Source: Candidatus Saccharimonadota bacterium (GTDB taxonomy: Bacteria; Patescibacteriota; Gracilibacteria; BD1-5; UBA2023). Taken from it: a DNA stretch of 32,000 bases. Where the stretch lies: NCBI GenBank assembly GCA_042852035.1, contig BAAFHK010000002.1:210001-242000 (forward strand), given 5' to 3'. Every line of letters starts with the position of its first letter. The stretch's first letter is position 1. Of this stretch, positions 1-32,000 are shown one piece after another. The notes beneath the pieces are model-generated. The model did no database searches, was not told where the DNA came from, and saw only the letters and a list, made by a program, of their open reading frames with translations. Made by a program: the position numbers and the translations under genes.

Positions 1-65
1 ATATTGAAGACTATTCAACCGAAGAAAAAGTGCTAAGAGTTATTCAGAAACTTCGTAACCTCTAA
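1..65 (+). CDS. 3' end of an unidentified CDS (partial, runs off the window)
   Basis: The frame is open from the window edge to TAA at 63-65 (...IEDYSTEEKVLRVIQKLRNL*). It is too short to name. Confidence 0.35.
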   Translation, partial: IEDYSTEEKVLRVIQKLRNL

Positions 66-69
66 TCTT

Positions 70-540
70 ATGAAGAATATTACTACAAGAGCTCAATATG
101 ATGCCCTCACGAGAGATAGAATCCTTGGAAAGTCTGAATGCCCATTTTGTGATATATCCTGACAAACATGACATACTATTTGGAAAGGGAAGTATTGGTA
201 TATTTTAAAAAATCTTTTTCCATATTCTTGAAATGAGGATCATATTATGGCCGTACCATATGAGCATAAATGCTTCTCCTATGAGTTAAATCAATCTGAA
301 ATCTTAGAGCTGAGTTGAATATATGAGTTTGTGAAAAATTATTACGGTGAGAAAGACTATTTTTCTTGTACCAGGGAGACTTTTTCGAATCGCAGCATAG
401 AACATTTCCATATGCATTTTATACCAGGAAAGCTCCAGTGAAAATGGCTCAGAAAGATGCTTGAATGACAAGGATTCCCCATTCATGAGGATCTAAAAAT
501 AGAAGAAAACTTGGAAGGAAGGAATTCTTCATTACTATAG
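70..540 (+). CDS. HIT (histidine triad) family hydrolase
   Basis: Code-25 ORF from ATG 70 to TAG 538-540 (156 aa, several in-frame TGA). It has the histidine-triad motif H-F-H-M-H-F-I-P-G near the C-terminus and C-P-F-C near the N-terminus. Confidence 0.8.
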
Positions 541-544
541 TAAT

Positions 545-1765
545 ATGAAAAATCTCTACGTCATTGATGCTTATAACCTTATCTATCGGATGTTTTATGC
601 TATCCCAGAAATGCATACCCGAGATGGCCAAGTGGTTAATGCTGTCTTTGGAGTAGTAAAGTTTATAAAATCCCTTACTGAAATGAGTCCTGATGATGCT
701 ATTATTATTGCATCAGAGAGTGGATCAAATTTTCGGGAAGCCCTGTTTGCTGATTATAAGGGTACTCGAGACCGTATGCCCGATAATCTTCGATCCCAAA
801 TAGACCCAATCTTTCAATTCTTTAAAAGCGCGGGGATTCCTATTCTTGTGAAAGAAGGATATGAAGCTGATGATATTATTGGATCAATTACCCATGACCC
901 TGATGGGTATAATGAGATTATTATCATCTCATCGGATAAAGATTTATGTCAATTTGTAAAAGATGGAAGAGTTCGAATATTTGATGCAATGAAGCAAAAA
1001 AATATGCGACGAGCAGATGTAATAGAGAAATTTGGCGTTCCTCCAGAACAAGTAAAAGATTATCTCGCTATCGTAGGAGATAGCTCTGATAATATTCCCG
1101 GTATGAGTTGATTTGGTCCAAAAAAGGCTGTGGAACTTCTTACAAAATATAATACTCTACGGGGTATATATGAGGCCATAGGATTAATGAACTATGAGCT
1201 CTGAAAAGAATCTCCTCTCGATCAGGAGAAATATACATGAAATGAGCTTACAGAAAAGACAAAACAATGACTTCTTGAAAATATTGAGAATGCTATTCTT
1301 TCAGAGAAGCTTGCAAATATCGTAACAGATCTCGATATCCCTCTTGAAGCAATCCATGGAAGTGATTCTCGTAGTATTTTTACAAATTCTCTTGTGATTG
1401 ATTTCCTCAAGAAATATGAGTTTAAGTCACTTATTCCTCCCGAGTATCGGGAGGCTCGAAAAGAGATTCAGAAGCCCAAACCTATAAGAATTCAGAGCTC
1501 TACTGAACTTGAGGAGTTAGGGAGGAGAGTAGATGAAAACAAAAAGGTCTACCTTGCTACAAGCCCTGAAGGAAATGTTATGATATCGATAGATGAAGAT
1601 GTATATATCATATCTATGGATTATATTGATGGAATTGATTTTTTTGAGAGACTCTTTTCGTCAGATTGTACGATTGTTGGTTATGACCTTAAGGAAGATA
1701 TAAAACGGATTATGAAGCAAAAAAATACCCTCGATGGAATCGAGGGGCAGGGGAGGTTGTTTTAG
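545..1765 (+). CDS. Pol I-type 5'-3' exonuclease (FEN-like) with a vestigial 3'-5' exonuclease-like tail and no polymerase domain
   Basis: With TGA=Gly, track ORFs 545..1111 and 1394..1765 (same frame) join into 406 aa. Motifs seen are LYVIDAYNLIYR, EADDIIGS, IISSDKDL and GDSSDNIPGMS-G(TGA)-FGPKKA (H3TH). It ends in TAG. Confidence 0.85.
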
Positions 1766-3411
1766 GCTGATTGGATTCGGAGTACTTTTCCATTTTTTGC
1801 TCGTCATTCTCCAAGAAGATCATATTTTTCAATTCTTGGTGGTATTCCGCCATTTGGATAGCTTACTACTTCGACGATTCAATTAATTGGTCTTGAGAGG
1901 GCAATCACGCTATGAGTTCTTCCACGACCAAACTCTCATCCTTCCATGTGATCTACCATGATGTGATTACCTGGTTGTATTACGCTGATTTGATCTAGAG
2001 TTGCATGAGTTCCATGTATTCCCGTTCATAACCCGATTTTTGTCTGAGAAACGCCATTAAATATATTTTTTTGAACTCGACCGATTGACTCGAGACATAC
2101 TCGATCGACCCAATCCGTACAATGTATGGCCCCAAGTATGTTTCAACGTTGCTGTGCTTCAAGAGCGAACTCCACAATACGTCTGTTTGCTTCTCATTCA
2201 GGAAGATTTGCAAGTTCAGGGTTATTAATATATCGGAACTGGCGAATTATATTCTGAGCATATTCTGCACGAATTTTCTGTTCCCCATCTTTATCTCAAG
2301 GCCTGAGATATTCACGAGAAATAATTGCAGCTGCCTCTCATGCATCTGTAGCAGATTTGAGCTCAGAAAATACTTTCTTCTCGAAATCATCTTCGGTCAT
2401 TTCCCACCAGGCCGCCTTGAGTTGATCAATATGAGATGCTGTACTTATATCAATTCAGGTTCCTTTTAAGATTTTAACTCTTCTTTCAGGATGCCATTGA
2501 AATATTCAGTGAGCACTACCATTATCGCCAATAGCACGAGGATTGCAACGACTTTCACGAGCTTCATTTGCAAGGAGTCATGCAATTTGCTCTTCTGAGA
2601 GTCATTTGGATTTCCAGAAATCATAAGATTCTCTCATAAGTATGGAAATCTCCACATTAGAACTCTCTGGCATTCTTTCAAGGCGTTCGATGCGCATATC
2701 AGTAGCGTCATCGCTTTGTTTTTGATCAATATTTCTCACTAATAGTGGATTCTTTTTTGATTCAAAATCCCCGATTTCAGATGCTTGAGGTATCTTCACA
2801 ATGCTTCAAGTAAAGACTGGAATATATCAGTCAGGACTTGGTTTTGTATAGTACCCTACTCGCCCATTAATGATAGATCGAACACCGATAACTCCATTCA
2901 CAATTACATATCAAACCGTTGCTGGAAGCATATCTCAAAGACCTATATTCCAATATGCACTTTTTCTTCAGGTATTCTTCCCAAGATCTACGTATATTTC
3001 ATCTCAAGGATTTATATTTTTGGTATCAATAGGGCTTTCAGTTATTGTTCCATCAGTATCTGTCTGTCTTTTAAATAAAAATGAGCTTGATAAAAACTCT
3101 CAGCGAGCTTCTTTCGAGAGTTCTCTATCGATTCGCATAAGATTGTTTGCATCGATAGAATCGAGGGAATTTTTTCATTCTGCAAGCTTATGATTTGCTA
3201 CTTCAGTATATTTTTTATTTCTTTGAAATTCACGTTGAAGAGCAAGAAGCTCCTCTCGTGTTTTCCGAATTTCTTCAAGTTTTTGAGGGTTATTTGGTTG
3301 AGATTGTATGTCTTTTTTTAATTCTTGGAGCTTTTTTGTAAGCTCTGAAATCCTCAATGGAGTTGATTCGGATATTGACGGTGAATTTACATTAATTTTA
3401 CGATCAGTCAT
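1762..3411 (-). CDS. Two-domain cell-wall hydrolase-like protein (phage-tail-lysozyme-like domain plus NlpC/CHAP-like Cys peptidase)
   Basis: I translated it by hand codon by codon: 549 aa with no TAA/TAG and many TGA. It joins track ORFs 3175..3411 and 2602..2799. The centre reads ARESRCNPRAIGDNGSAHGIFQWHPERR. The C-terminus has a Cys...His pair (HCTDWVDRV ... GNHIMVDH). The N-terminus is a coiled coil with no signal peptide. The TAA stop at 1762-1764 overlaps the converging exonuclease stop. Confidence 0.6.
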
Positions 3412-3432
3412 GAAATGAATTTTACACTAAAT

Positions 3433-3460
3433 TAAAAAAAAGCAAGTAGAATTACTTGCT
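3433..3460 (-). terminator. Rho-independent terminator after the STAS gene
   Basis: An 8-bp stem, agcaagta (3441-3448) / tacttgct (3453-3460), with loop gaat, is followed on the minus strand by a run of eight U (plus-strand aaaaaaaa, 3433-3440). Confidence 0.5.
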
Positions 3461-3808
3461 CAATTCGACGAGGGCAGTTTGTTCAGTCTCGTATACGGGG
3501 ATGATATTTGTTATCCCTACGAGATCGAGTGTATCATGTACTTCGCTTGTGAGTGAACAAAGAGCGAATTTCCCACCTCCATCTTCCGTTCTTTGGGCCA
3601 CATCAGCAATATAACCTATAGATTTACTATTAAGGTAGGTGAGCTCCTTGAGGTCAAAGAGCGTTCGTGCTCATGAGAAATTACCAATATCTGAGATGAT
3701 ATTTGGGAATGTAGAGTCTACATTTGTTTCATCGAGTTCTCCATGGAATGAAAATACTTTAATTCCGGTATTTGTGCTCGATTTTTTTACTTCAAGTTGC
3801 GTAAGCAT
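3452..3808 (-). CDS. STAS-domain protein (anti-sigma-factor antagonist, SpoIIAA-like)
   Basis: 118 aa with TGA=Gly: MLTQLEVKK...FSFHGELDETNV...LKELTYLNSKSIGYI...LCSLTSEVHDTLDLVGI, ending in TAA. The ATG at 3808 is preceded by the ACTAACC motif. An alternative upstream ATG lies at 3886. Confidence 0.7.
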
Positions 3809-3927
3809 AATGAAAGGGGAGGTTAGTGAGGATAGATTAATCCTATAGTTCTGAGTAAGTATACCATGTTTTATCTTTCGATGCAAATTTTGCTTTGCAT
3901 TTCATTATTTTTTCATAGACTTATTTT

Positions 3928-4881
3928 ATGATTACCGAAAGAATATCATCTTCACCCTCATTCTGGCAAAGTAATATTTGGGAAGCAATACTTCATGATT
4001 CATGACAAACAAGAGATGTGGAGGTTATTACCTATGGACAATACGGTATAATGGTTGAATATCGCAGTATTGGACTCTGATTCGAGTGAGCATTCTCACT
4101 TGGGGTTGACATGGGTCAGTATACAGAGGAATTTCTTCAGAGAGTACGAGATGAACTAGCCTCTAAGTGAGTGATATTCTGGCAAATCGAAGAATATTAC
4201 CCAGATTGAGTCGATCCTACTCAAGCACATCAAGTGGTTTATGGGAGAAATTTTATCGAGCCATGGACTCGAGTCCTCGATCTCAGAAAAACAGAAGAAG
4301 AACTTATGGCAGAAATGCATGAAAAGGGAAGATATAATATTCGACTCGCATGGAAACGTGGAGTCTTAATAGAATGGGTGCGTCCGATTGCTGAGAACAT
4401 AGACATATGGATGAAGCTCCTTTCTGAAACAACAGAAAGAGATGATTTTGCTCATAATTCTCATGAGTACTATATTTCATTTCTCAGAAATATAACTGAT
4501 GCGAATGCATGATGAATGGTATTCGCATCATATGAATGAAAAATTATTGCCGCATGAGTCTTTATCTTTCATCATGGGACAGCTTTATATTACTATGGGG
4601 CATCTACATCAGACCCTGAAATGCGTAAGCACATGGCACCATATCTTATACAGTGGGAAGGCATAAGGGAGGGGAAGCTCAGGGGGTGTCATACCTATGA
4701 TTTTCTTTGAGTCTGTCTCCCCGAAGATGCCGAGCACCATCTTGCAGGAGTATCGAGTTTTAAAGAAAAATTTGGCTGAAAAATAATTATGGTAGGAGGT
4801 AAATCCCTCTATGTGCTCTCTAGTTTAAAATTTCTCTTCTTTAAAATAATTCGCAAAATGAAAAAGGGTCTTCACAAATAA
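3928..4881 (+). CDS. FemAB-family peptidoglycan interpeptide-bridge aminoacyltransferase
   Basis: 317 aa with TGA=Gly; track ORF 4234..4512 is a fragment of it. Motifs are GRYNIRLAWKRG, FIFHHGTALYYYGAS and YDFLG(TGA)V. It ends in TAA. Confidence 0.8.
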
Positions 4882-5273: not shown

Positions 5274-5906
5274 TTAGATTTCACTATTTTTGAGGGTGTC
5301 AACAAGGTCACTTTGTCAAAGGCGTGCGAGCACTAGACGTGCTTCACTTTCTTGACCAGCTGCGATAAGCGCAACAGAAAGGTCATTTATTACCATTGGT
5401 TCATCTGGAGCAAGAATATGTGCTCTACGAAGGAGTGAGAGTCATTTCATAAGATCTCACTTCATGACATGAGCCCAGCCGAGATTTCGTAAAATTTCTG
5501 CATTATTTGGCATGAGTCAATTTGCTTTCGAGAGTATCTCAATAGCTTTTTCAAACTCTCATCGGGCAGTTGCAAGATATCCATCAAGATACATGCCAGT
5601 TCCACTATCAGGATGAAGTTCTCGAGCTACACTGAGTACTTCAGATGCTTTTTCTATATTTCCTTCAAATAGGTAGATATCCGCAAGTTCCTCATAAAGC
5701 CGATAATCATCTGTGTGGATTTTTAGTGCTTCGAGCGAGATTTCTTTTGCCTTCGGATAATCATTTTCTGACTTTGATGTCTCGATTTTTTCGATTATTT
5801 TTTGTATATCCATGTCGGGATTATATTTTCTTTTTTCTACATTGCAAGGGAAGTAGAAATTTTGACAAATTATTTCCAATACTTTTCTGCTAGTTTTTTC
5901 ATTCAT
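5274..5906 (-). CDS. TPR-repeat protein
   Basis: 210 aa with TGA=Gly, with repeated A/Y/L helical hairpins ([24 protein letters not shown]...; [18 protein letters not shown]). A purine-rich tract (agaaggaaa) lies upstream of ATG 5906. An alternative ATG at 5813 would avoid overlapping the rlmN tail. Confidence 0.65.
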
Positions 5907-6970
5907 TTTCCTTCTTCTTTCGCGAGGGATTTTCCTTCTTCCTTAAGGGCAAGTTGACCACATGCGGCATCTATATCATCCCCCATTGTATGTCGAACTG
6001 TAGAAGGGATTCCTGCATCTTCAAGAGTACTTTGAAATTTCTTTATCATAATCTTCGAAGTTGGTTGGAATCCATTTCCCATAATTCCTTCTCAGGGATT
6101 ATAAGGAATAAAGTTTACATGGGCAAGCTTTCCCTTAAGAAGGTTTGCGAGTTCATGAGCATATTCTGGTCGGTCAGTAACTCATGCTATCATGATATAT
6201 TCATAAAAAATTCTTTTATTTGTCTTTCATACATATTCATCAAGAGCCTTCATAAGTTCATCTATAGGATAAGTATTTTCAACTGGCATAATACGCTTTC
6301 GAGCTTCATCATTCGGGGCATGAAGAGAGATAGCGAGGGAAATCTGAGGAAAATCTTCTGCAAGACGAAGAATTCCAGGAACAATTCCACAAGTCGAAAT
6401 AGTTATACGACGATTTGAGAGGTCAATTTTTTTCTGAGCGCTCGCGATATAAATAGATTCTTTGACATTTTCGTAGTTTAGCATTGGCTCCCCCATTCCC
6501 ATATAGACAACATTTCGAATTTTTTTATCTTCTTTTGCGAGTAAAAGATTTGCAATCATGATCTGATCAATAATCTCATAAAATTCAAGATTTCTTATGA
6601 GTCCAAGTTTTCCTGTAGCGCAAAATGAACAAGCCATAGGGCATCCTGCTTGAGAGCTAACACAGAGGGTGTTGCGCCCAGAAAGATGACGCATGATTAC
6701 GGCTTCTATCATCTTTTCATCACTTGTTCGAAGAAGAAGTTTTGTTGTTTGTCCATCGTCACTCGTAACTTCTGAGTGAATCTGAAGAGAGTTGTAAAAA
6801 CAATTTTCTAAAAGAATCTCTCGTATTTCTTTTGGGAGAGTATCGATTTTCTCGAAATCAGTTATAAGATTCTTATAGATAGCATTTTCTATTTGTGCAT
6901 ACCTAAATTTTTTATGACCATTTTTTTCGAGGATTGCTATGATGTTTTTTTCGTCGTGAATAGAGAACAT
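5870..6970 (-). CDS. rlmN: 23S rRNA/tRNA m2A methyltransferase RlmN (radical SAM)
   Basis: Motifs are [18 protein letters not shown] (radical-SAM CxxxCxxC), MGMGEP and TISTCG. With TGA=Gly the frame passes TGA at 6227 and at 5903 and ends at TAA 5870-5872. An alternative TTG start lies at 7003. Confidence 0.9.
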
Positions 6971-7093
6971 AGTTTTGAGAAGTATCTTTCTTTTTATGGA
7001 CAAAAAAATATCAAAAAGGATTTTTACCCCATGTTATAAGGAAACAATCGAGTACGGAAAATGAGTGGAACTATCCCAGAAGGGAATAAGACT

Positions 7094-7528: not shown

Positions 7529-8011
7529 TTAAGCAACGCTTATAATTTGAAATTCTTTTTTCCCAGATGGTGAGCTATAAGATGATTTATCTCATGCATT
7601 CTTTCCTATAAGAGATTTTCCAAGAGGTGATTCGTTTGAAATCTTATTCTCGAAGATATTGGCTTCCTGTGATCAAACGAGGGTATAAGTAATTTTTTCC
7701 CCATCGAATTCTAGAACAACGGTATTTCCTACATTAATTCCCGATTTCTTTCTTTTTATTCCTTTTTCATCGTCGATTAGGTCATAGTTTCCAGGCTTGA
7801 GAAGCTCTTCAAGTTCAGCAATTCGGAGCTCTACTTGAGCCTGCTCATCACGAGCTTCTTGGTATTCTGCGTTTTCCGAAAGGTCACCATATGAGATTGC
7901 TTCTTTGAGCTTGTCTGCGATTTCAACTCGCTTTTCTTCTTTAAGATGGCGGAGCTCCTCTCAGAGTTCGAGAAGTCATTCGCGAGTAAGGAGAACTTTT
8001 TTATTTGACAT
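7529..8011 (-). CDS. greA: Transcription elongation factor GreA
   Basis: 160 aa: MSNKKVLLTREG(TGA)LLELG(TGA)EELRHLK...ISYGDLSENAEYQEARDEQ...ESPLGKSLIGK. It ends in TAA at 7529-7531. Confidence 0.9.
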
Positions 8012-8868: not shown

Positions 8869-9420
8869 TTATTTTTTTGTTTTTACGCTGGCGAATTCAA
8901 TCTCAACTGGAGTATCACGACCAAGGAGATTAATCATAATTTTTACCATACCCTTTGCAGAATTTACTTCAATAATCTTTCCTTCACTGCCTTCAAAAGG
9001 ACCATTTTTTACCGTTACATAATCACCAACTTGCATATCAGTTTTGTATTCTTCGCTTTTTTCAGTGAGGATACCTTTGAGCTTATCAAGTTCTTCTCCA
9101 CTTACAGGTACTGGGACTGTACCCGCACCAAGAAATCCTGTTACATTCGGTGTATTTCTTACGATATACCAAGATTCATTGGTTACAATCATGTTAACAA
9201 GGATATAACCAGGGAAGATATTCTTTTTTCGAGAAATCTTTTTACCACCCGCTCGAACAGAAACTGAGTCATGGGTTGGAACAAATACATCGAGAATATA
9301 ATTTTCGAGACCAAAAGCCTCTCTTCGTTGCATAAGTGATTGCCGTACATTTTCTTCGGTTCCAGAAATAACACGGATAACGTACCACTCACCAAGAGGT
9401 TTTGTTGAGAATTCAAACAT
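8869..9420 (-). CDS. nusG: Transcription termination/antitermination factor NusG
   Basis: An intact 183-aa ORF with an NGN domain (WYVIRVISGTEENV) and a KOW domain (GDYVTVKNGPFEGSEGKIIEV). It ends in TAA. Confidence 0.95.
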   Translation of the reverse strand: MFEFSTKPLGEWYVIRVISGTEENVRQSLMQRREAFGLENYILDVFVPTHDSVSVRAGGKKISRKKNIFPGYILVNMIVTNESWYIVRNTPNVTGFLGAGTVPVPVSGEELDKLKGILTEKSEEYKTDMQVGDYVTVKNGPFEGSEGKIIEVNSAKGMVKIMINLLGRDTPVEIEFASVKTKK

Positions 9421-9444: not shown

Positions 9445-9807
9445 TTATTTGTTAGCTCCACTCACTGAAAGTTCAGTTTTTTCTGGACTTGAAGAAGAGA
9501 CAGGATTTACTTCTACTTTTGCCCCAGAGAGAGCATTTTTTCTTCTTTCGATTTCATTCTTCAGATTTTCCATATCTTGTTCATTTACAGTACTTTCTCC
9601 TGACACTGTTGATGAAACAACTGCATCATGAGGAAATATATCTCGAACGCCCTTAAGTCAAAATCGAATCCCATATCCTACAAGGGATAGAAGTGTCGCC
9701 ATAATGATAATGGTTCCTACCGTATAGAGCATATATTTTTTGCTTTCAGCATTTGTTGGCCAGACTACATGATCGAGCTCTTCAAGAGATTTTTTAATAA
9801 ATGACAT
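9445..9807 (-). CDS. secE: Preprotein translocase subunit SecE with a C-terminal extension of about 70 aa
   Basis: It starts MSFIKKSLEELDHVVWPT and has a single TM (YTVGTIIIMATLLSLVGYGI). The frame reads through TGA 9658-9660 to TAA 9445-9447. Confidence 0.8.
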
Positions 9808-9837
9808 AAATTTTGAATACAAAAATGAAACGCGAGA

Positions 9838-9865
9838 ATTATATAGAAATAGCACTAAGAGTCAA
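9838..9865 (-). promoter_or_regulatory. Candidate sigma70-type promoter of secE-nusG
   Basis: On the minus strand, TTGACT (plus 9860-9865), a 16-nt spacer, then TATAAT (plus 9838-9843). It lies 31 nt upstream of the secE ATG. Confidence 0.5.
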
Positions 9866-9894: not shown

Positions 9895-10150
9895 GTCAAC
9901 GTGGTGATAATAGTAATTTTTTTAGAAAAAACAAGGGAATTTTCTGGAGCTCCTTGGTGGGAGCAATCTTCGAACTTTTATAGAGAATTTCGATAGGGTA
10001 ACAAAAGAATATTGAGAGAATTTTTAGTATATAGATCTATCTGAGTTTAGGAGAATTTGAAAATTACTAGAGTTATTGTGTATTTTAAGGGAAAGTTTGT
10101 TTGATTCTTTATTTATAATAATCCCATGAAGTAACTCTAACTTCTTAAAT

Positions 10151-13411: not shown

Positions 13412-13547
13412 ACAATATTACAAGTCTAATTATTGCAATATTCAAATAGTCTATATAATAAAATTCTTCTGAAAGTCTTAGTTTCACTCCTGGTTTTAAT
13501 GGCGCCATTCTATCAAATTTATTTTGCTTATAATGATACTATTAACT

Positions 13548-14371: not shown

Positions 14372-14376
14372 AGAAA

Positions 14377-14756: not shown

Positions 14757-14759
14757 AGT

Positions 14760-19103: not shown

Positions 19104-19733
19104 ATGATGGATAGAGTTTTTCTCATAGGTGTTGATGAGGCTGGAAGATGAGCTTGGGCCTGACCAGTATGTGCCTGAGCATTTTGTGTTCCAATTGATT
19201 TTGATTTTTCCCTCCTTGTCTGATTAACTGATTCCAAGAAGCTTTCTCCCATTATTCGCGAAAGACTCTTTTGAGATATAGAAAAGTTATCTCGAGAAGG
19301 GAAGTGTCGATATGCTTTCGGAGAATCAGATGCTCAATGCATAGATGAAGTTGGTATACGCGAAGCAAATAGAAGAGCTATGAAGAATGCACTAATTCAG
19401 GTACTTCAAAATATGGAATCCGATTCAAAATACAGTATCCTCATTGATGGGAGGGATAACTATAAATTTGAATGAATTTCAATGAATCTTGTAAAATACA
19501 TCATTCACTGAGATCTAATAGAGCCAGTAATTTCTGCGGCTTCGATTATTGCAAAGGTTGGAAGAGATAGAATTATGTGTGATTTTTCGAAGGATTGCCC
19601 TGAGTATCAGTTCTCCCTTCATAAGGGCTATGGAACAAAGAAACATCAGGATGCACTTCTATACTATGGCATACATCCTCTTCATCGCAAGTCCTATGCC
19701 CCAGTGAAAGCCTTGATTTCGGAGAAAGCATAG
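19104..19733 (+). CDS. rnhB: Ribonuclease HII
   Basis: 209 aa. The motif is GVDEAGRG(TGA)AWAG(TGA)PV, followed by DSKKLS and HKGYGTKKH. It ends in TAG at 19731-19733. Confidence 0.9.
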
Positions 19734-20860: not shown

Positions 20861-20885
20861 AAAAAGGCACACTTAGTGCCTTTTT
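20861..20885. terminator. Bidirectional hairpin terminator
   Basis: A perfect 10-bp stem, aaaaaggcac (20861-20870) / gtgccttttt (20876-20885), with loop actta. It lies between converging genes. Confidence 0.65.
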
Positions 20886-21253
20886 TATTTATGAATTCCT
20901 TCTTGTTTTTGTTTCATGGCGATTCGTAATCGTTCGACTTTATCTTTAAGGGGACTATCAGATTTGAGCGAAAAACTCGATCCACATCAACATCGAGTAT
21001 TTATATTTTGGCTTGTAAAAATCCACTTGCTTCATGCTTGGGTAATCCTTGCATTTTCCAAAAGGGCACTTTCATCATCTTTGATATATAGAGTAATATC
21101 ATCTTGGACTATTTCCTTATTACAGAGGCTATTTTTCCCTCTTTCAACTTGTATTTTTGTCCCAGCACAACCGCTTTTATAGAAAAAAACAGAGAGACTA
21201 TTTACGCCTTCTTTTTTCCAGGTTTCTAGGGAGAGTTTATCGAAATAAATCAT
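20885..21253 (-). CDS. HesB/IscA-family iron-sulfur cluster insertion protein
   Basis: About 122 aa. The C-terminal signature is C-G-C-G-S-S-F, with the first Gly encoded by TGA (20987-20989). It ends in TAA at 20885-20887. I chose the ATG at 21253 because the upstream gene stops at 21264; an alternative ATG lies at 21292. Confidence 0.85.
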
Positions 21254-21263
21254 AAAAGTAATT

Positions 21264-22343
21264 TTATTTTTCCTGAAACTGCCATTGACCATCTTTTTTT
21301 CTTACGGTCCAACCATTCTGGTCTTGTATGGTTGGAATAAATTTAAGAAGTCATTTTTCTAGAATCCCGCTTCAGGTAGTAACTTCAGGGTGGTTCTTTG
21401 TTATCTCTGAGATAAACCCGAGATAGAATTGCTTTATAGCTCTTATATTAAATCCATAGCAAGTGTTTCATGATGATGCAATAATGTTGTCGCCTGTTTT
21501 TGGATGCTTCAAATTTTTCTCATAGGTTCAGAGTCAACCAATAAAGTCTTGGAATGAGGTTGTTTTATATTTTTTGAGCAGAAGAGCTGTTTCTTTTTGG
21601 CAAGTATATGGATCTTCATCATAAGCTCAAGCAGCAATCAAAAGAAAGCGCTCTCAAGAACTTTTGTAATCTCCGAGCTTTGCTTGCATGAGCGGTCATA
21701 GGAACTGTGCCGCTTTTGGTCAATCTTCTTCGAGGCTTGCGACTTTGAAGTATTGTTCTGCCTTGGAATACTCTCAAAGCTCATTCGCTGTTATTGCAAC
21801 ATTATATGCAAGCATTGAATCATTGCAGGGGTTTTTTAATTCACTATTATTCCAGAGTTCTCTACCAATTTCACTTGAATATATTTTTTGAAGCTTTTCT
21901 TGGTTGCAGTTTTCTTGGATGCCCTTTTCTCAAATTCGTAGAGCTTCTAGAGTAACTTGTCTTCGCTTCTCATAATCCTCTCGATCAGTATTTACATTTG
22001 GTGAGAGTATCAGGGCAAGATTATATGCTTCAGAAAAATGAGGGTGAAGGATGGTTATTTTTTCTACAATGGCATTTAAAAAATTATTATACCCTTCATT
22101 AAAGATATTGTCTCATATGTATTGGATAAGTTGTATCCAGAGGGTGTCTGCAAAACTGTTCGTGTTGCCAGCTACAGTAAGTTCTATAAGATCGGTATCT
22201 GGGAGTGTTTCGGGGTGAAGTATTCTATAGTCCCAGAGATTACTATATTCATCATAAATCTTCCCTGTATTAAGTTGGAACGAAAAATATCCTCATAAGA
22301 GAATACAAAAGATAAGCATGAGAAAGGAAATCCTTTTTTTCAT
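21264..22343 (-). CDS. Membrane-anchored hypothetical protein
   Basis: 359 aa with TGA=Gly, entirely invisible in the track. It has an N-terminal TM (MKKRISFLMLIFCILLGGYF). It ends in TAA at 21264-21266. I recognise no family. Confidence 0.6.
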
Positions 22344-22345: not shown

Positions 22346-22870
22346 TTATATACCAACACCTTCAAGGGAAAGGCTATCAATATCATTTGATGGTGTTCTA
22401 TCTTTTTGAGGTTGATTGTTCGCTATAATGGCTCAAGTGTAGCTCAACATAAGGGCTCTTTCTTCTCATTCTCCCTCACTTCTTGTGCTGAGTCATTCAA
22501 TCTTTTTCTCAGAAATATAGTTATGCGCTTTCTTTCTCTCAAATGCAGAAAGATTCGGTATCCGTATAGATTTACCGGTTGACATAACAAAAGCAATTTT
22601 TGATTCAAGAAATTTGAAAAGTCTCTCATCTTTTGACTTCATGTAGTCATTAACTTCAAGATGAAGGTGAATGAATCTTCCAAGTTTTTTTTCTGCAACT
22701 CGACCGAGGAGGTGCTTAAAAACTTCCATATTTTTTCCATGCTGTCCTATGATGAGTGAGGAATCAGGAGTTTCGATATTTATAGATACATCATCACCCT
22801 CTTCCGTAATGGTAAGGGAGTCAATTTGTATGCCAAGTCCTTCAAAAAATGATTGAGTAAAAGTTTTCAT
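22346..22870 (-). CDS. khpB: Jag/KhpB-like RNA-binding protein (KH plus R3H domains)
   Basis: 174 aa. KH-like segment: IIGQHGKNMEVFKHLL. R3H segment: LSAFERKKAHNYISE...G(TGA)LSTRSEGEGEERALML. The TAA at 22346-22348 is followed 3 nt later by the next ATG. Confidence 0.75.
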
Positions 22871-22950: not shown

Positions 22951-23038
22951 TGGCGGAGAGAGGGGGATTCGAACCCCCGGTGCATCACTGCACACACCCC
23001 TTCCAAGGGTGCACGATCGACCACTCTGACATCTCTCC
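22951..23038 (-). tRNA. tRNA-Ser (anticodon GGA), long variable arm, CCA encoded
   Basis: The acceptor stem is GGAGAGA/TCTCTCC. The anticodon stem is CACCC/GGGTG with loop T-T-GGA-A-G. The long variable arm is TGTGCAGTGATGCACC. The T arm is GGGGG-TTCGAAT-CCCCC. Confidence 0.9.
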
Positions 23039-23220: not shown

Positions 23221-23487
23221 ATGAAAATAAAAGATGTAGTTCAGAAAAAGCGAGTTGGCGATAGACTTCGCCGCATCGAATGACAGATTCGATGAGTCAT
23301 TCAGATGATTGAAGACGAAGCAAGTGTTGCAAGTATTGTTCAACAGCTTTCTGCTGTTAGAAGCGCTATGGGGCAGGCAATTAATGAAGAAATTGTCTGT
23401 ACTATTGAAAAAATGTCCGATAAAAAATCATCCCTCGAACAAAAAGATTATGACGAAATCAGAGATCTCATGAAGGTGGCTCGATAA
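23221..23487 (+). CDS. CsoR/RcnR/FrmR-family (DUF156) transcriptional repressor
   Basis: 88 aa. The motif is RLRRIEG(TGA)QIRG(TGA)VIQMIED, followed by IVQQLSAVRSAM. It ends in TAA. Track ORF 23305..23487 is the C-terminal fragment. Confidence 0.75.
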
Positions 23488-24085
23488 TTTCCGTAAGGTT
23501 ACTTCCGTTTGGCTCGCTTTTTGGAGAGGAGTCTGAAAATTTCTTCCAGATTCTTTCAATAAGAAGTGGGTATTTTTTTGGAAGAATATCGGATATGGAC
23601 TTCCTTCATCATCATTTCTTATATCACGAATGCTCCGGTATGTAGAATGGGACTGAGTAAAACAAGTTGTTGAACTTGGTTGATGAACTGGTGTAATGAC
23701 TCGAGCTATTCTTGAAAAAAAGAATGATTCTACACATTTAACTTCTTGTGAAATAGAAAAGGACCGATATGAGTGACTCAGGAAGTACCACAATAATCAT
23801 ACAAGCATAGTTCATCTCGATGCGGAAGCTTGTTTAAATTCATTTCCTCGAGAGGGTGTTGATATTGTTATATCTACTCTGCCACTTGGAAGTATGAATC
23901 CTATACATGCACGAGAAATCTTGGTTGCGATTTCTCGTGCGCTAAAAAACGATGGACTCTATATCCAGTATCAGTATTTTGGAACAAATAAGGAAGATAT
24001 TGAAAAACTGTTTTATATTATAAAAAATGACTGGGAGCCAATAAATTTTCCTCCAGCGTTTATTTATATCTGTAAGAAAAGATAA
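23450..24085 (+). CDS. Class I SAM-dependent methyltransferase (phospholipid N-methyltransferase-like, COG3963-type)
   Basis: About 211 aa. It has PSSSFL, then motif I VVELG-G(TGA)-G(TGA)-TGVMT. Track ORF 23894..24085 is the C-terminal fragment. It ends in TAA. The start at ATG 23450 overlaps the preceding gene by 38 nt and is uncertain. Confidence 0.7.
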
Positions 24086-24360: not shown

Positions 24361-26922
24361 ATGCCCAAGAATCTTGTGATTGTTGAGTCGCCAGCAAAGG
24401 CTAAAAAAATAGGAGAATATCTTGGTAAAGACTACCAAGTTGAGGCTTCTATATGACATATTCGTGATCTGCCAGAGAAATCCATAGGAGTTGATATCGA
24501 AGGAGGGTTTATTCCAAGTTATGAAATTTCTCCCGATAAAAAAAAGCGCGTCACTGAACTCAAGGCATTTGCAAAAAAAGCAGATCATATCATCCTCGCT
24601 ACTGATCCGGATCGTGAATGAGAGGCAATCGCATGGCATCTTGCCCATGTATTTGATATAGACCCAAAAGATGCCACAAGAGTTACCTATAACGAGATTA
24701 CCAAAAATGCTATTGTAGATGCATTTTCGAAACCTGGAAAGATTGATATGGAACTCGTGAATGCTCAGCAATCGCGTAGAATCCTTGATCGTATTGTTTG
24801 ATATGAAGTTTCTCCTGTTCTTTGGAGAAAGGTGAGGTCTGGGCTTTCTGCCTGAAGAGTTCAATCAGTCGCTGTAAAATTATTGGTTGAGCGAGAGAGG
24901 GAAATCCGAGCCTTTATTCCTGATGAATCATGGAATATACGTGCTTTTTCAAAAACGAGCGGGCTGGATTTTCCTCTCGAGTTTACAAAAATCTCAGGAA
25001 AAAATCAAAAGCTTAAAAATGAAGAAGAAGCAAGGGAATTTTTTCTCTCACATGGGATTGATATCTGAGTCATAAAAAAAGAGAAAAATAAGAAGGGGAA
25101 TATTCTTTATACGGTTCCACATGAGGAAAATTTTGTACTTGAAGATATTGAAAAGAAAGAATCAAAACGTTTTCCGGGCGCTCCTTTTACTACCTCAACT
25201 CTTCAACAGGAGGCTTCCCGTAAACTTGGTTACGGCGTAAAGATGACCATGGATATTGCGCAAAGGCTTTACCAAAATGGGCATATTACGTATATGCGAA
25301 CAGATTCAGTAAATCTTTCGGATCAAGCTATCTCGTCAGCAAAGAACTTTATCGATAAAGAGTTTTGAAGTGAATATAGTCTTCCTCAGGGGCGAAAATA
25401 TAAAACAAAACAGGCAAACGCTCAAGAAGCACATGAGGCGATACGACCTACTTACATCGATAAGACGCCAGAAAAAAGCTGACTTGATGCTCAAGAATTC
25501 AAGCTTTATAAGCTTATATGGGAAAGAACGGTTGCTTCTCAGATGGCTGAGGCAATTATTGAAACAACAACATATCGATTTATTCCTGAAAAAAATAGAA
25601 GCGAAGAGTGGATTTCAAAGGGGGAAGTTATTATTTTCCCAGGTTTCATGAAGCTCTATATAGAAGGAACTGATGATGAAGAAAATGAAGAAAGTCGAAA
25701 ACTTCCTCTTCTTGAAAAAGGAAAAATAATAACTTCCCATACTCTTTTTGGGGAGCAGAAATTTACTCTTCCTCCACCCAGATATACAGAAGCTTCTCTT
25801 GTGAAAAAACTTGAAAGTGAAGGAATTGGTCGACCAGCAACTTATGCTGCTACAATTCAGACGATTCAAGATCGAGGATATGTTGTTATAGAGGCGAAAA
25901 AACTCCTTCCGACGGATATTGCCTTTGTGGTAACTGATTATCTTGAAAAGGAATTTACGAATTTCATGCAATATGACTTTACAGCTCGAATTGAAGAAGA
26001 TTTTGATGAAATTTCTCGTTGAGAGCTGAATTGGAAAGATATGCTAAGTGATTTCTATGTTCCATTTCATAAAAATATAGAATCTGCACTTGGAAGTGAG
26101 GGTCGTTTTTCTGGTGAAAGAAATCTCGGTAAAGATCCTGCAACTGGTAGAAGTGTTATTGCTCGTATGAGTCGATTTGGTCCTGTGGTTCAGATAGGGT
26201 CTCCTGATGAGCTTTGAGAAGATGAAAAACCTCGATATGCAAATCTTTCTCCTGGTATGTCAATTGATGATGTCTCACTTGAGGAATCTTTGGCACTTTT
26301 TTCATTTCCAAAAGAAATTGGTAGTTATGAAGATAAACCTCTTATGATTTGACAGGGGCGTTATGGTCCATATGTCAAATGGGGGGAGGCATTTATTTCC
26401 ATCCCAAGAACAGAAGATCCTCATGCGGTTGATCTTAGTAGGGCTATCGAACTTATCGAAGAGAAGAAAAAAGCAGATGCACCTGTTGGTATGTATGAAT
26501 GAGTATGATATACGAAAGGGAAGTGACGTTTTGGTCCATTTCTTAAATGGAAGGACCTCTATATCAATGTTCCTAAATCAATTGATTTCGAAGAAATTAC
26601 AGAAGAAGAAGCTCACAGGCTCATCTCGGCTAAAGTTGAAAAAGAAGCAAATAGATATATCCATAACTGGCCAGAAGAAAAGATTTCTGTGGAACGAGGA
26701 AGATACGGACCTTATATTAAATTTGGAAAAGAGAACCTTTACCTTAAAAAGTGAGGAAAAAAAGTAACAGATGAGACAGAAATAAATAATCTTACACTTG
26801 AAGAAGTGAAAGGAATGATTACAGAACAATTACCAAATGCCTTCGGAAAGGTGAAATCAAAAACTGATCCTAAGAAGGCAAATACAAAAAAGAAGACGGT
26901 AAAAAAGAAGAAAGAGAATTAG
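24361..26922 (+). CDS. topA: DNA topoisomerase I
   Basis: 853 aa with TGA=Gly. Motifs are [16 protein letters not shown](TGA)HIRDLP, TDPDREG(TGA)EAIAWH, LSAG(TGA)RVQS and YITYMRTDS. The C-terminus has RYGPY-type repeats and no Cys4 zinc fingers. It ends in TAG at 26920-26922. Confidence 0.95.
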
Positions 26923-26998: not shown

Positions 26999-28840
26999 AT
27001 GAATTTTTTAAATAAAACGAAACGTTTTTTTGAGCCAGTTTTTCTGATGCCAAGAAATTTTTTCTGGAATATCTTTGAGGGTATTGCTATGGGTTGATAT
27101 TATATTTTCTCTTTTGAAATTCTCCGCAATATCTTTGCGAGCCTTATACAAGCAGATCTTCAAGATTTTTATACGCTCATTTATTGGTATTCAGGAGTTT
27201 CAATATTCTTAATGAGTGCCCGATTTCTTCTTTATAAAGAGTGATGGGCAAAAATCCTTTTCGATGGAACAAAAATATATTATGGAATTTATCTCAAGAA
27301 ATTTATTCAGGCAGATGGTAACATGATAGAAAGAATCTGAACTGGTAGATTTATAAATATTATTGATCGTTGAGTACATACTTGGATTGATGGACTTTTT
27401 GAAGTTACATTTAAGGCAACTATGAGCATTGTTATAGCACTCTATGCCGTGTATTTTGTTTTTGGTATCTCCAGTATTTTTTGAGTTATTCTCCTTATGG
27501 TAATTATTATCTCATGAGGTATTGCTACCATGGCGAACTTCTGGATGACAAAAAAAAGATACAAAAGACAGTTTGAAGAAAGAGAAGGTAAACATCAAGC
27601 CACAGTTGCTCTTATGTCTAAAAATGAACTTCTTCAATCAGGTTGAATCGAGAATATTTTAAGAAAAATTGATCACCATTTTACTCTTGCGAAAGTCTAT
27701 CAATATCCAGTTAATGTAGGGTTTCTTGTCATCGAAGAAGCGCCACGTTTTTTATTTCTTGTTATTCGCGTAGCGCTCTATATCTATATTGCACAATCAA
27801 TATTTGAAAAAACATGAGTTACCGTTGCTGACTTTGGTATTTTTATTGCTATAATATCTTTCACTGAGAAGGCACTCAATGAGTTTTTTCATCTCTTGCG
27901 TGATTTGCTGCGGAATTTTGCCTATATAGAGACTCTTTGGAGTACTTTTGACTCGTTACCATCGATAAAGGGATATGATACATGAAAAAAATTTCAAATT
28001 AAAACAGGAGAAAACCTTTCCCTCCACTCCCTCTCCTACACCTATACAGATACTCCTATATTCCAAAACCTCTCTCTTACTATAGAACAAGGAAAGAAAA
28101 CCGCATTAGTTGGTGCGAGTGGAGGAGGAAAAACTACTCTCATGAAACTCATAGCAGGATACCTTCATCCCGATGAAGGATATGTTTCTGTATTTTGAAA
28201 TAGACTCGATGAAACTGCCCTCAAAACCTACTATCCCCATATAGGGTATCTCACTCAAGAACCATGAGTCTTTGATGCAACCATACGAGAAAATCTTATA
28301 AGCGCTCTCCCAACCCTTCAAAGAGAAGACTCCATCTCTCACGAAGAAGACTCAACTCTTCAGACAGAATCATCCGACACAGAAGCAAAGCATACCGAAG
28401 AAATAAAGCATACCAAAGAAGCAAAACATACCGAAGAACAAATCATCAAAGCTCTTCGTCTCGCTCACTGTGATTTTGTCTTTGATCTCGAAAAATGACT
28501 CGATACAGAAATAGGTGAACGATGAGTCAGACTCAGTTGATGACAAAAACAACGACTCGCTATTGCTAAGATATTTCTCAAGAACCCAGAAATCATCCTT
28601 CTTGATGAACCAACAAGTGCTCTCGATTCCTTCTCAGAAGAACAAATCACCAAAGCTCTGGATACTCTTTTTCACTGAAGAACCGTCATCATCATCGCTC
28701 ACCGACTTCAAACCGTAAAGAAGGCTGATGACATCATTGTGATAGAATGATGAACCATCCATGAACGTTGAACCCACGAAGAACTCATTGCTAAATGAGG
28801 CATTTACCATAAGATGTTAGAGTTACAAAGCGGGTTTTAA
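26999..28840 (+). CDS. ABC exporter, fused permease and ATPase (MsbA-like half transporter)
   Basis: 613 aa with TGA=Gly. The N-terminal half is hydrophobic. Walker A is GASGGGKTT. The signature L-S-G-G-Q is encoded ctc agt TGA TGA caa (28532-28546). Walker B is [11 protein letters not shown]. It ends in TAA at 28838-28840. Confidence 0.9.
28385..28438 (+). repeat. Three tandem 18-nt coding repeats (AKHTEE / IKHTKE / AKHTEE) inside the ABC ATPase domain
   Basis: The in-frame units lie at 28385-28402, 28403-28420 and 28421-28438. Confidence 0.8.
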
Positions 28841-28841: not shown

Positions 28842-29843
28842 ATGCGGATATTTGTATTTTTTACTCTCATACTGGGTCTCTCTTGGTCCCTTCCAATCTT
28901 CGCTGAAAATACGAAGAGTTTTAGTGGGCAGGTTGAAGATAAATTTGAGGGAGCTATTTCAAAAATAGTAAAGCTCAATAGAGAGGTGAAGATGAACCCA
29001 AAGAATATCATCATTGAAGAAATTTATAAAAGGAGAAATACCTATACGAAGTATGCAAAGAGTCTCTATAAATATTTAGAGATACGTAGTAGTCTGAAGC
29101 CCACAGTTGATGTCAGTGATAGATATAAACTTAGCCTCCAAAAATATCTTCTTTCATGCGAAATTGCTGCACTGAGAATGGTTGTTGAGGTTTTATCTTC
29201 TAAGTATATAAGCGAGGAAGATATTATGAGGGAGATTCCTCAGTTTGTGGCTCCATATAAAAATGGTATTTGGTGAGATCCAGAAAAAGAGTTTGTATGA
29301 TCTTATACTTGATCGCAAAAGATTGCTACATGATATGGAGTTTATGGTCTCCCGCTCTCCAGATTTCTCGATAGAAGATGATACAATAATCAATATTCTC
29401 ATACTCTTATGAGTAGTGGTATAACATGAGATATTCAATTGTCAGGAGCACTTGATGCGCTAAAGAAATGAGATCACATTATTTTTTGGGGAGACTGGTG
29501 TACTACACCAGCATTCGATGATTGAGTAGTAGATAAAATAGATATGTATGTCTTTAGAAATTTTACTATTTCATGACGCAATGAATGTGAAAGAGCCTCA
29601 GCAGAGAGAGTAATGACATGGAAGACGAAAGAGGGAACATCAGTTTCTGGAATTTCTTGAGAGCATGCATTTCTTCTTCTTGGTTACGTTTGATCCAAAG
29701 AAAATCCAACACATATAATCGTCTGGGATACCGACACGGGTAAACATATATATCCTATTCTTGAGTGGATGAGAAAATGGAGTACTCTTGATTACCGAAT
29801 GCTTATTGTAGAAAATAATTCTATGTATCGAAACAAAAAATAA
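28842..29843 (+). CDS. Secreted peptidase C39-like (C39_2 / BtrH-like) cysteine peptidase domain protein
   Basis: 333 aa with TGA=Gly, extending track ORF 28842..29276. The signal peptide is MRIFVFFTLILGLSWSLPIFA. The catalytic-type Cys context is LLSCEIAALRMV and the His context is EHAFLLLGYVG. Its ATG lies 1 nt after the ABC stop. It ends in TAA at 29841-29843. Confidence 0.65.
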
Positions 29844-29936: not shown

Positions 29937-30377
29937 ATGGGAACAAAAGATTCTAGCAAGAAAAAAGTAAAAGAAGTTGATCCAGTGAAGCTTGCAAAAA
30001 AAGCAAAGAAAGCTGAAGAGAAAGCAAAGAAAAAAGCACAAAAAGAAGCTGAAAAAATGGCAAAAAAAGCTGCTAAAAAAGCAAAGAAGGAAGAAAAAAA
30101 AGCAAAGAAAGCTGTAAAAAAGAATCAAGTAAAGGCAGTAGTTCAAAAAAAGGCTCCTACTAAAAGAGCTTCTGTAAAAAAGGCTCCTGCAAAAAAAGCA
30201 GCTCCAGTAAAAAATGTTGCTGTGAAGTCTGAAGTAAAAAAGCCTACTGTTGTAAAAGCTCCTGCTAAACCAACAACCCCTAAGAAAGCTCCAGTTAAGA
30301 AACCAGTTGCAAAAGCTCTTCCAGCTAAGAAGCCTGTAGCAAAAAAAGCAGTAACTCAGACAGCATCAAAAAAATAA
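29937..30377 (+). CDS. Histone H1-like Lys/Ala/Pro-rich nucleoid protein
   Basis: An intact 146-aa ORF with AKKA/KKPV-type low-complexity repeats throughout. It ends in TAA. The minus-strand track ORF 29922..30146 is its antisense shadow. Confidence 0.75.
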   Translation: MGTKDSSKKKVKEVDPVKLAKKAKKAEEKAKKKAQKEAEKMAKKAAKKAKKEEKKAKKAVKKNQVKAVVQKKAPTKRASVKKAPAKKAAPVKNVAVKSEVKKPTVVKAPAKPTTPKKAPVKKPVAKALPAKKPVAKKAVTQTASKK

Positions 30378-30378
30378 T

Positions 30379-30402
30379 CTAGGATTCTTCCTAGGTTTTT
30401 TT
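30379..30402 (+). terminator. Rho-independent terminator
   Basis: The stem is ctagga (30379-30384) / tcctag (30389-30394) with loop ttct, followed by g and a run of seven T. Confidence 0.55.
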
Positions 30403-30559
30403 ATGTGAATCATTTTTTCTAAATGACTCTCTAAAAGGGTCATTTTATTTTCTTCTCTATTTCAGGTGGGGATTATGAATAAATAATTTACTTCATTAAA
30501 ATGCTTTGATATTCGGAAAAAATTACTAGAATCATCGTATATTCATTGTTGATTTTTGT

Positions 30560-31936
30560 ATGAAAAAAAATGTTCTCATTGGTATTAGTGTGCTTCTTTC
30601 TATACTCATTTCTTTCCTCATTTTTCTGAAGAAAGATACTATGAAATCTCAAATTTGGGAAGACGAAAGTACTACAGGATCTCTTAATATAGAGAAGAAA
30701 ATTGATCCTTCAATTCCAGCAGGATGAATCCCGAAGAAATCAACATCAATAGGAAATGTGGATACCAAAATAGATGTTATAAAGCAAGAGAAGATGGATA
30801 AAAATCCACTTCTTATAAATGATATCATGTCCAATCGGCTCTATCTTATGGAAAAGTCTGGTCATGTTCTTTTTGAGTGGCCACTTGGAGATCAATACCT
30901 CTGAAATGATGCATTTTTGCTTCCTGATGGAAAACTCCTTGCTTCAGTAAAATCAAAATCTCCGCATATAATTCTTGGAGGATATTGAGGTATTACTGAA
31001 TATATGGGAACAGGTGCACAGGCCCTTTGGAAGTATGAAATCTCCTCGACAGGCGTAATAGCTCATCATGATACTGAGCTTCTTCCAAACGGAAATATAC
31101 TGACCCTTGTGTGGCGTAAAATAGAGAAAAAGGATGCAAAAAAGATATGATATAAATCTGACATCGATATTTATCCTGAGAGAATAGTAGAAATAAATCC
31201 AACTACGAATTCTATAGTATGGAGGTGGGACTCAATGGATCATATTATCCAAGATGTGAATCCAAATCTTCCAAATTATGGTGTTATAGAGAAACATCCA
31301 GAAAAAATAAATCTCAACTACGCAAATTCAATGAGTGGTATGATAATGCATGGAAATGGACTTTTCTATGATTCCAAGAACGATCTTATCTACATGAGTG
31401 TTTATAATTTTAGTGAAGTATGGGTAATCGATCACAGTACGAGCTCATGAGAAGTTCATACTGGTAAGGGCTGAAATTACTGAAGATGAGGTGATCTTGT
31501 TTATCGATTCGGGAATCCAAGTGCTTACGGTGGAACCTGAACAAGAATCTTCTATAGCAATCACCATCCAAGCTTTACAAAACAATGAACATTTCTTATC
31601 TATTCAAATGGTATAAAGGCAAATCCTGAACAATCAACGGCTTATGAACTTAAGCTTCCAAGTGAGCTTGATGCAAAAAAAGCAACACTTATCTCACCTG
31701 AAATTGTTTGGTCCTATACTCATCCTGATTTGTTCTTCGATAAGGTAGGGGGTATAGTCGAAGCACCAAATGGAAATTTTATCCTTACAGAAGGGGATGG
31801 AAAAATTTGGGAAGTAACAAGAGAAAAAGAACTAGTTTGGACTTACACTGTTAAGCCATGAATGTTTTGGAGGACGTATGTCTATCCATACGGATCTCCA
31901 GAACTTAGTGCTCTAGGAATAGAAGAGAAAAAATAA
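30560..31936 (+). CDS. Arylsulfotransferase (ASST)-family beta-propeller protein, membrane-anchored
   Basis: 458 aa with TGA=Gly; track ORF 31235..31450 is a fragment. The N-terminal TM is MKKNVLIGISVLLSILISFLIF. Motifs are HHDTELLPNGNIL, NGLFYDSKNDLIYMSV, and WVIDHSTSSG...GDLVYRFGNPSAY. It ends in TAA at 31934-31936. Confidence 0.65.
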
Positions 31937-31974
31937 TTCTTGCTTTTTCTTTTATATCGAATATATTCTAAAAC

Positions 31975-32000
31975 ATGTACTCTAATATTGTAAAATCTCT
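31975..32000 (+). CDS. Possible start of the next CDS (partial)
   Basis: From ATG at 31975 the frame stays open to the window end (MYSNIVKS...). Only 8 codons are visible. Confidence 0.15.

Follow-up and report, generated by a model that had tools for sequence, protein, structure and literature searches.

The 32,000-nt window analysed here (positions 210,001 to 242,000 of contig BAAFHK010000002.1, GenBank assembly GCA_042852035.1; the coordinates below are those of the window) carries 29 protein genes and three RNA genes, which together occupy 90% of its length. Genes for DNA topoisomerase I (Topo I), a fused ABC exporter, RNase HII, adenylate kinase, RlmN, NusG, SecE and HemW are found along with RNase P RNA, two tRNA genes and an integrative element inserted at the end of one of them (Table 1). 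Our subject is the codon TGA, which interrupts most of these genes when the standard code is applied. The original prediction, made from the letters of the window, held that TGA is read as glycine here, as in NCBI translation table 25.

TGA is a sense codon, and TAA and TAG are the stops

Translated with the standard code, the window contains 19 open reading frames (ORFs) of at least 100 amino acids (aa), the longest being 258 aa; the count rises to 78 and the maximum length to 1086 aa when TGA is sense. In control translations with TAA or TAG as sense the longest ORF was 282 or 258 aa, respectively. The final set of 29 genes contains 255 in-frame TGA codons (2.7% of 9548 codons) and not a single in-frame TAA or TAG. 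Both stops are frequent in the other frames of these genes (1–3% per codon); thus, their absence in frame is selective. Translation terminates at TAA in 22 genes and at TAG in seven, no gene ends in TGA, and the gene lengths agree with those of homologues. With TGA translated as a neutral X, 24 of the 29 read-through ORFs have Pfam matches at E ≤ 0.01. TGA is a sense codon in this window, where TAA and TAG terminate every gene.

The claim that recognisable genes are cut by in-frame TGA under the standard code holds for 26 of the 29 genes; for these the standard-code annotation is wrong, some genes vanish from it entirely, and re-translation with table 25 is needed. Two such genes had been named as missing from the standard-code track, and all that this track offers on the same strand are pieces of at most 45 aa for 13802–14371 and at most 52 aa for 21264–22343. 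The motif codons put forward in the original prediction were likewise found exactly where they had been placed, and in every one of these strings TGA stands at a Gly that is invariant in the family motif. The ABC signature LSGGQ is written CTC AGT TGA TGA CAA (28532–28546), and motif I of the S-adenosylmethionine (SAM)-dependent methyltransferase is written GAA CTT GGT TGA TGA ACT GGT (23672–23692). On the minus strand, the C-G-C-G signature of the IscA-like protein reads TGT TGA TGT GGA, with TGA at 20987–20989, and the adenylate kinase P-loop, G-I-Q-x-S-G-K-G-T, has TGA at 18521–18523. The remaining motif TGAs lie in the CsoR-type repressor (23281–23283 and 23293–23295), RNase HII (19149–19151 and 19161–19163) and Topo I (24454–24456).

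The meaning of TGA and of the other codons

The original prediction proposed to tabulate which residue aligns to each TGA in protein families, and this tabulation supports it: Gly was found in 23 of 37 columns and Trp in none. To obtain these columns, TGA was masked as X and five conserved proteins were aligned to homologues of solved structure (from PDB) that come from standard-code organisms. The TGA columns showing Gly were 7 of 10 in Topo I, 8 of 13 in the ABC exporter, 2 of 4 in adenylate kinase, 4 of 7 in RNase HII and 2 of 3 in RlmN, where the third is a variable Thr column. All strongly conserved TGA columns are Gly; they include the Toprim S-x-G-H and D-x-E-G-E motifs, both Gly of LSGGQ and the Walker-B-proximal G of the exporter, the Gly of the P-loop and of DG(F/Y)PR in adenylate kinase, and D-E-A-G-R-G of RNase HII.

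A codon-exchange test, independent of database translations, used orthologous codons from 74 related Gracilibacteria loci. In 2180 orthologous pairs TGA of the window faces GGN in 44.7% and TGA in 18.9% (64% together); it faces TGG in three pairs (0.1%), a Cys codon in four, and TAA or TAG in none. In the reverse direction, TGA is found opposite 14.5% of GGA and 16.8% of GGT codons of the window, while TGG of the window faces TGG in 79% of pairs. This pattern of exchange implies that TGA acts as a fifth synonymous Gly codon. All 11 motif positions cited in the original prediction hold GGN or TGA in Gracilibacteria orthologues; the first of those in methyltransferase motif I also admits Ala, as the motif does generally. 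At the C-G-C-G column of the IscA-like protein GGN stands in 18 of 19 orthologous loci, and the orthologous codons at the CsoR TGA positions are all GGN or TGA.

The same meaning of TGA is favoured by profile scores and by composition. Summed over 12 Pfam domains, the scores reach 1437 bits if TGA is translated as Gly, 1310 bits if it is left as neutral X and 1271 bits if it is taken as Trp, and Gly gives the highest-scoring translation in each of the 12 domains. The Gly content of the proteins, 4.21% without TGA, rises to a normal 6.89% when TGA is counted; Trp would reach 3.76% if TGA were Trp. These four independent lines (structures, codon exchange, Pfam scores and composition) agree, and together they identify TGA as a glycine codon at the level of sequence.

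In the first gene set, TGA is the most used single Gly codon of the window (247 of 634). As the sole AT-rich Gly codon, TGA is favoured in this low-GC genome (35%), and more so in the integrative element, whose GC content is 28% as compared with 36.5% in the rest of the window. We also considered that highly expressed genes might avoid TGA, as suggested by NusG, in which none of the 17 Gly codons is TGA; yet NusG orthologues use TGA for 24% of their Gly codons, and the idea was dropped.

No other codon has changed its meaning. In the orthologue exchange table the standard amino acid is the top partner for all 61 other sense codons, so that all 62 sense codons match table 25. CGA and CGG deserve separate mention: Absconditabacteria read both as Trp (Shulgina & Eddy 2021, PMC8629427), and a Trp reading of CGG is possible in some Gracilibacteria (PMC8629427). 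Here CGA (1595 orthologous pairs) and CGG (237 pairs) are exchanged for codons of Arg rather than for TGG, and CGA is a common Arg codon, used 99 times. The exchange data thus identify the code as exactly table 25, with no additional codon reassigned, and place the organism in a lineage without the extra CGA/CGG-to-Trp step of Absconditabacteria.

Lineage, decoding of UGA and alternatives

To find relatives, NusG, which has no TGA and reads alike under any code, was used as a probe against one genome per GTDB species. Of the 80 loci kept, 74 come from Gracilibacteria-type metagenome-assembled genomes (MAGs; at most 91% identity, some titled ‘Peribacteria’ or ‘Patescibacteria group’), and six are distant Firmicutes matches. 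The order HemW–tRNA-Thr–secE–nusG is conserved among the Gracilibacteria loci. The closest relatives are MAGs of Candidatus Gracilibacteria, i.e. of the lineage for which the code was described (PMC8629427, PMC4032931, PMC6851277), in agreement with the attribution of the TGA pattern to the known SR1/Gracilibacteria reassignment in the original prediction. By these comparisons the organism is a Gracilibacterium, and the window is almost certainly a chromosomal segment of Candidatus Gracilibacteria (BD1-5 / GTDB JAEDAM01-type) that uses table 25, with UGA as Gly.

An exact-protein look-up of NusG yielded two short contigs, among them NCBI contig CAYXDQ010000278.1 (L001; GCA_964463675.1), on which an identical NusG lies. 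Gene calls there extend over the full read-through lengths (one product, of 264 aa, contains four TGA), which means that both the lineage and its code are already in public databases. Positions 1–270 of this contig have no match in the window, and their first ∼120 bases read GC-rich, unlike the remainder; this may reflect a chimeric join in the public MAG or a different upstream context.

The reassignment itself is known and the biology is not new. Table 25 is the Candidate Division SR1 / Gracilibacteria code, described in 2013 (Campbell 2013 and Rinke 2013, as cited in PMC8629427), and UGA as Gly was confirmed in BD1-5 by proteomics in 2014 (PMC4032931). What the window has in common with it is the meaning of UGA, the stops UAA and UAG, the standard meaning of everything else, the low GC content and the placement in Gracilibacteria; no difference in codon meaning was detected in the window. 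The value of the result is practical and lies in the re-translation of the window with table 25; scientifically, it is one further confirmation of a well-documented code. The extended code of the sister lineage Absconditabacteria (SR1) shares UGA as Gly, and differs in that CGA and CGG are Trp there and Arg here. With table 4 (Mycoplasmatales and others) the system shares an AT-rich genome and, as far as the mechanism described for the clade applies, a tRNA(UCA) that captures UGA and the loss of release factor 2 (RF2); the amino acid at UGA is Gly here and not Trp.

For the Gracilibacteria code, the described mechanism combines a tRNA-Gly(UCA) carrying the identity set of glycyl-tRNA synthetase (GlyRS) with loss of RF2 (PMC8629427, PMC6851277, 10.64898/2026.05.24.727570); the identity rules for this tRNA are given in PMC8629427, and prfB went undetected in all BD1-5 genomes (PMC6851277). 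Under this mechanism, a dedicated tRNA-Gly(UCA) that retains G1:C72, C2:G71, G3:C70 and U73 would read UGA; RF2, the UGA terminator, would be gone, and UAA and UAG would be left to release factor 1. The clade and the literature lead us to infer the same tRNA and the same loss in this particular genome, and its tRNA(UCA) would most likely resemble GCGGATATGATGTAGTTGGTGTAGCATAGCAGACTTCAGCTCTGTTTGTACGGGTTCGAGTCCCGTTATCCGCT.

Candidates for such a decoder were collected by a scan of metagenomes with a structural pattern, and 80 loci were checked by ARAGORN, which confirmed a tRNA(UCA) in 55. Fifty of the 55 make one conserved family, in which 17 sequence variants occur and both the acceptor stem and the anticodon stem show compensatory changes; the contigs that host it have 25–41% GC. 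In the 39 loci of this family that are at least 3 kb long, long open stretches add up to 91,944 codons with TGA as sense, 11,905 codons with the standard code and 45,031 codons in a TAA-sense control. This TGA-sense signature of the contigs shows that UGA-sense lineages possess the decoder.

A37 is usual in tRNAs for codons that start with U. The main tRNA(UCA) family (L083–L162) has G37, in an anticodon loop C/A-U-UCA-G-C, a feature that may be relevant to avoiding the misreading of UGG. Separate from this family are two tRNAs on metagenome contigs, at L138 1–74 and L136 172–245, that look like the Bacillus-type tRNA-Gly(UCC) but carry the anticodon UCA. L138 (contig Ga0209488_10042658) has 62% GC and is clearly not from Gracilibacteria. 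Opal suppression by glycine tRNAs, or else an independent case of UGA as Gly, may account for these two.

Several observations weigh against the glycine reading or its proposed decoding. About one-third of the TGA columns face residues other than Gly; these are variable columns (as are all 14 non-Gly columns of the 37 aligned to PDB homologues), and the same is seen for GGN codons. Neither tRNA-Gly(UCA) nor a release-factor gene was detected within the 32-kb window; its only tRNAs by ARAGORN are Thr(GGU) and Ser(GGA), and a cluster like thrU-tyrU-glyT-thrT, sought upstream of secE, came down to tRNA-Thr(GGU). No tRNA(UCA) was found around nusG in the 74 syntenic Gracilibacteria loci (∼1.1 Mb), where tRNA-Gly(UCC) is the Gly tRNA present, in two loci only. 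The contigs with tRNA(UCA) showed no overlap with the window and its relatives in blastn and tblastn comparisons, and since the search pattern imposed the GCG...CGCT ends and the UCA anticodon, these features of the candidates are not independent evidence. Finally, low-level termination or misreading at UGA would be compatible with the sequence.

In-frame TGA could mark selenocysteine, for which UGA is the codon in the standard bacterial system, or programmed read-through in a standard-code genome. Such events could hardly be as dense as 255 TGA in 26 of 29 genes (2.7% of codons) and would not come in tandem inside LSGGQ and methyltransferase motif I; besides, TGA ends no gene, aligns to Gly rather than to Cys or selenocysteine and swaps freely with GGN, and Rfam at gathering threshold found no element of the selenocysteine insertion sequence (SECIS) type in the window. 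We regard this explanation as exceedingly improbable. The fragmentation of nearly every gene under the standard code is also what would be seen in pseudogenes or assembly errors, with TGAs as real stops in decaying genes. Decay is expected to scatter all three stops and frameshifts, whereas the 9548 codons hold 255 TGA and no TAA, TAG or frameshift; across dozens of independent MAGs these columns are likewise GGN or TGA, and the family matches run full length, end to end, so that we consider decay next to impossible.

A code in which TGA is tryptophan (table 4, the code of Mycoplasmatales and of certain insect endosymbionts and Eggerthellaceae) has in its favour that TGA is clearly sense in a genome of low GC content (35%), as in the organisms that use table 4, and for some JAEDAM01 genomes gTranslate reportedly calls table 4 in error (10.64898/2026.05.24.727570). 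Each line of evidence that bears on the amino acid speaks for glycine instead. Trp occupies none of the 37 PDB-aligned columns; exchange between TGA and TGG (3 of 2180) is set against 79% for TGG with itself; the Trp translation scores lowest in all but one of the 12 Pfam domains and would bring Trp content to 3.8%; and the invariant Gly of LSGGQ, the P-loop, the Toprim E-G and the RNase HII D-E-A-G-R-G would all become Trp. Translation with table 4, a very improbable code for this organism, would place Trp at 255 glycine positions, catalytic motifs included. There is somewhat more to be said for an ambiguous UGA, read mainly as Gly and in some contexts serving as a terminator or being frequently misread: BD1-5 proteomics found rare non-Gly peptides at UGA (PMC4032931), U34 of tRNA(UCA) could wobble onto UGG (PMC8629427), and the integrase ORF of the integrative element has a TGA five codons before the element boundary and otherwise no stop inside it. 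No gene of the window needs a TGA stop, however, as all 29 reach TAA or TAG at homologue-like length; 27 further TGA lie in frame in the integrase, which gains its own TAA or TAG stop in the reconstructed circular form, and the use of TGA in NusG orthologues (24% of Gly codons) is ordinary. An ambiguous UGA is, in our judgement, unlikely, and glycine as the regular meaning of TGA is the reading that we carry into the re-annotation.

The element at tRNA-Thr and the re-annotated genes

Table 1. Features of the window as read with translation table 25
Feature	Coordinates	Strand	Length (aa)	In-frame TGA	Supporting matches
HIT-like nucleotide hydrolase/transferase	70..540	+	156	6	weak Pfam and NCBIfam matches, HxHxH motif
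5'-3' exonuclease	545..1765	+	406	4	PF02739 1e-44, PF01367 6e-22
Phage-tail-lysozyme-domain protein	1762..3411	-	549	20	PF18013 bits: Gly 99.3, X 80.5, Trp 69.9
STAS-domain protein	3452..3886	-	144	1	PF01740 2e-14
FemAB-family peptidyltransferase	3928..4881	+	317	11	PF02388 bits: Gly 108.2, X 99.3, Trp 95.5
TPR-repeat protein	5274..5906	-	210	5	TPR families
RlmN radical-SAM rRNA/tRNA methyltransferase	5870..7003	-	377	4	PDB 6fz6 4e-77
GreA	7529..8011	-	160	4	PF03449, PF01272
NusG	8869..9420	-	183	0	PF02357
SecE	9445..9855	-	136	1	PF00584
Integrative element (6,667 bp)	9951..16617				empty site in L001
Cargo protein, no assigned function	10151..13411	-	1086	39 (74% of its Gly codons)	
Cargo protein, invisible under standard code	13802..14371	-	189	9	
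Large serine integrase	14760..16880	+	706	28	PF00239, PF07508; phrog_95 1e-25
tRNA-Thr(GGU)	16618..16692	-			ARAGORN, Rfam
HemW radical-SAM haem chaperone	16782..17873	-	~363	16	TIGR00539 1.5e-54
Adenylate kinase	17930..18553	-	207	4	PDB 3dl0 2e-26
RNase P RNA (bacterial class A)	18616..19014	-			RF00010, 167.5 bits
RNase HII	19104..19733	+	209	7	PDB 3o3g 1e-24; PF01351 bits: Gly 117.7, X 102.0, Trp 94.6
IscA/ErpA-like Fe-S protein	20885..21292	-	<=135	2	TIGR00049 9e-8
Protein with no assigned function	21264..22343	-	359	13	conserved in 16 related loci
KH/R3H (Jag/KhpB-like) RNA-binding protein	22346..22870	-	174	3	PF01424, PF13083
tRNA-Ser(GGA)	22951..23038	-			ARAGORN
CsoR-family metal-sensing repressor	23221..23487	+	88	2	PF02583 bits: Gly 61.0, X 50.8, Trp 51.0
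SAM-dependent methyltransferase	23450..24085 (alternative start 23384)	+		6, including motif I	PF13649
DNA topoisomerase I	24361..26922	+	853	14	PDB 6pcm 2e-148; PF01131 bits: Gly 395, X 372, Trp 369
ABC exporter, fused permease and ATPase	26999..28840	+	613	20	PDB ABCB-type matches 1e-86
Peptidase C39-like protein	28842..29843	+	333	11	weak PF13529 match
Lys/Ala-rich, histone-H1-like basic protein	29937..30377	+	146	0	no Pfam match
Arylsulfotransferase-like beta-propeller protein	30560..31936	+	458	11	PF05935 4e-13

Sequence comparison identifies the island between secE and the tRNA-Thr gene as an integrative element with a large serine integrase; its excision and activity are predicted. Its insertion site is the 3′ CCA end of tRNA-Thr(GGU), and direct TGGAGC repeats that match this end flank it (9945–9950 and 16618–16623). 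Its boundaries were set at base resolution by alignment to L001, a strain of 98% identity in which the site is empty, and among relatives the tRNA-Thr gene lies 4–40 bp from the region upstream of secE. A repeat finder with a 14-nt minimum missed the flanking repeat, whose 6-nt core was seen only in the empty-site alignment. The tRNA 3′ arm is imperfectly mimicked at the distal end of the element.

Within the element, no TAA or TAG interrupts the integrase ORF, and the core of the attachment (att) site falls within the 3′ end of this ORF. In the integrated state the last 88 integrase codons, from 16618 on, are host DNA that runs antisense through tRNA-Thr and overlaps the end of hemW; in the reconstructed circular form the integrase would end at 646 aa with a different tail. 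TGA accounts for 68–82% of Gly codons in the element versus 0–57% in core genes, a share that marks the element as adapted to hosts with UGA as Gly. The two cargo proteins had no match in Pfam (with TGA as X or G), PADLOC, PHROGs or NCBIfam, the 1086-aa one had none in PDB either, and no integrase relatives were found in viral contigs. A hydrophobic stretch, seen by eye at the N-terminus of the 189-aa protein, is suggestive of a signal peptide.

With tRNA-targeting elements of the phrog_95-type large-serine-integrase class, the element shares the serine recombinase catalytic and recombinase domains, insertion at a tRNA 3′ end, regeneration of the tRNA by an element-borne mimic and an empty site in a sister strain. 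Unlike that class, it uses code 25, has an integrase ORF whose 3′ end contains the att core, and carries cargo without detectable homologues in curated libraries. A tentative and somewhat doubtful proposal is that this is a strain-specific element native to code 25 and presumably confined to hosts with UGA as Gly, that integration swaps the C-terminal tail of the integrase (646 aa in the circular form, 706 aa in the integrated one), and that the cargo without detectable relatives could serve an undescribed accessory or defence function in bacteria of the candidate phyla radiation. The embedded element shows that code-25 lineages do undergo horizontal transfer, via elements that share the code of their host.

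Outside the element, the product of 21264..22343 is likely a membrane or secreted protein, judging by eye from an N-terminal hydrophobic stretch. The genes for CsoR and for the methyltransferase downstream of it lie in different frames and overlap by 38–104 nt, depending on the start chosen for the latter.

Reading TGA as sense also opens spurious ORFs. Long antisense ORFs at 7061–7714 (+), 22406–22921 (+), 23050–23808 (−) and 30488–31723 (−) were rejected because each overlaps an annotated gene or tRNA or runs antisense to one. A 141-aa ORF at 18672–19097 (+) overlaps RNase P RNA and is spurious too. The opposite-strand ORF at 29922–30443 (−), longer than the Lys/Ala-rich gene, is an artefact of the repetitive composition of that gene.

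The start of hemW is unusual. There is no ATG, GTG or TTG near the N-terminus, and the codon found there is ATA, at 17871–17873 (−). Most relatives have ATG at this site, and three loci (L004, L015 and L019) share the ATA, which suggests that hemW is initiated at ATA, a codon that is not among the listed start codons of table 25.

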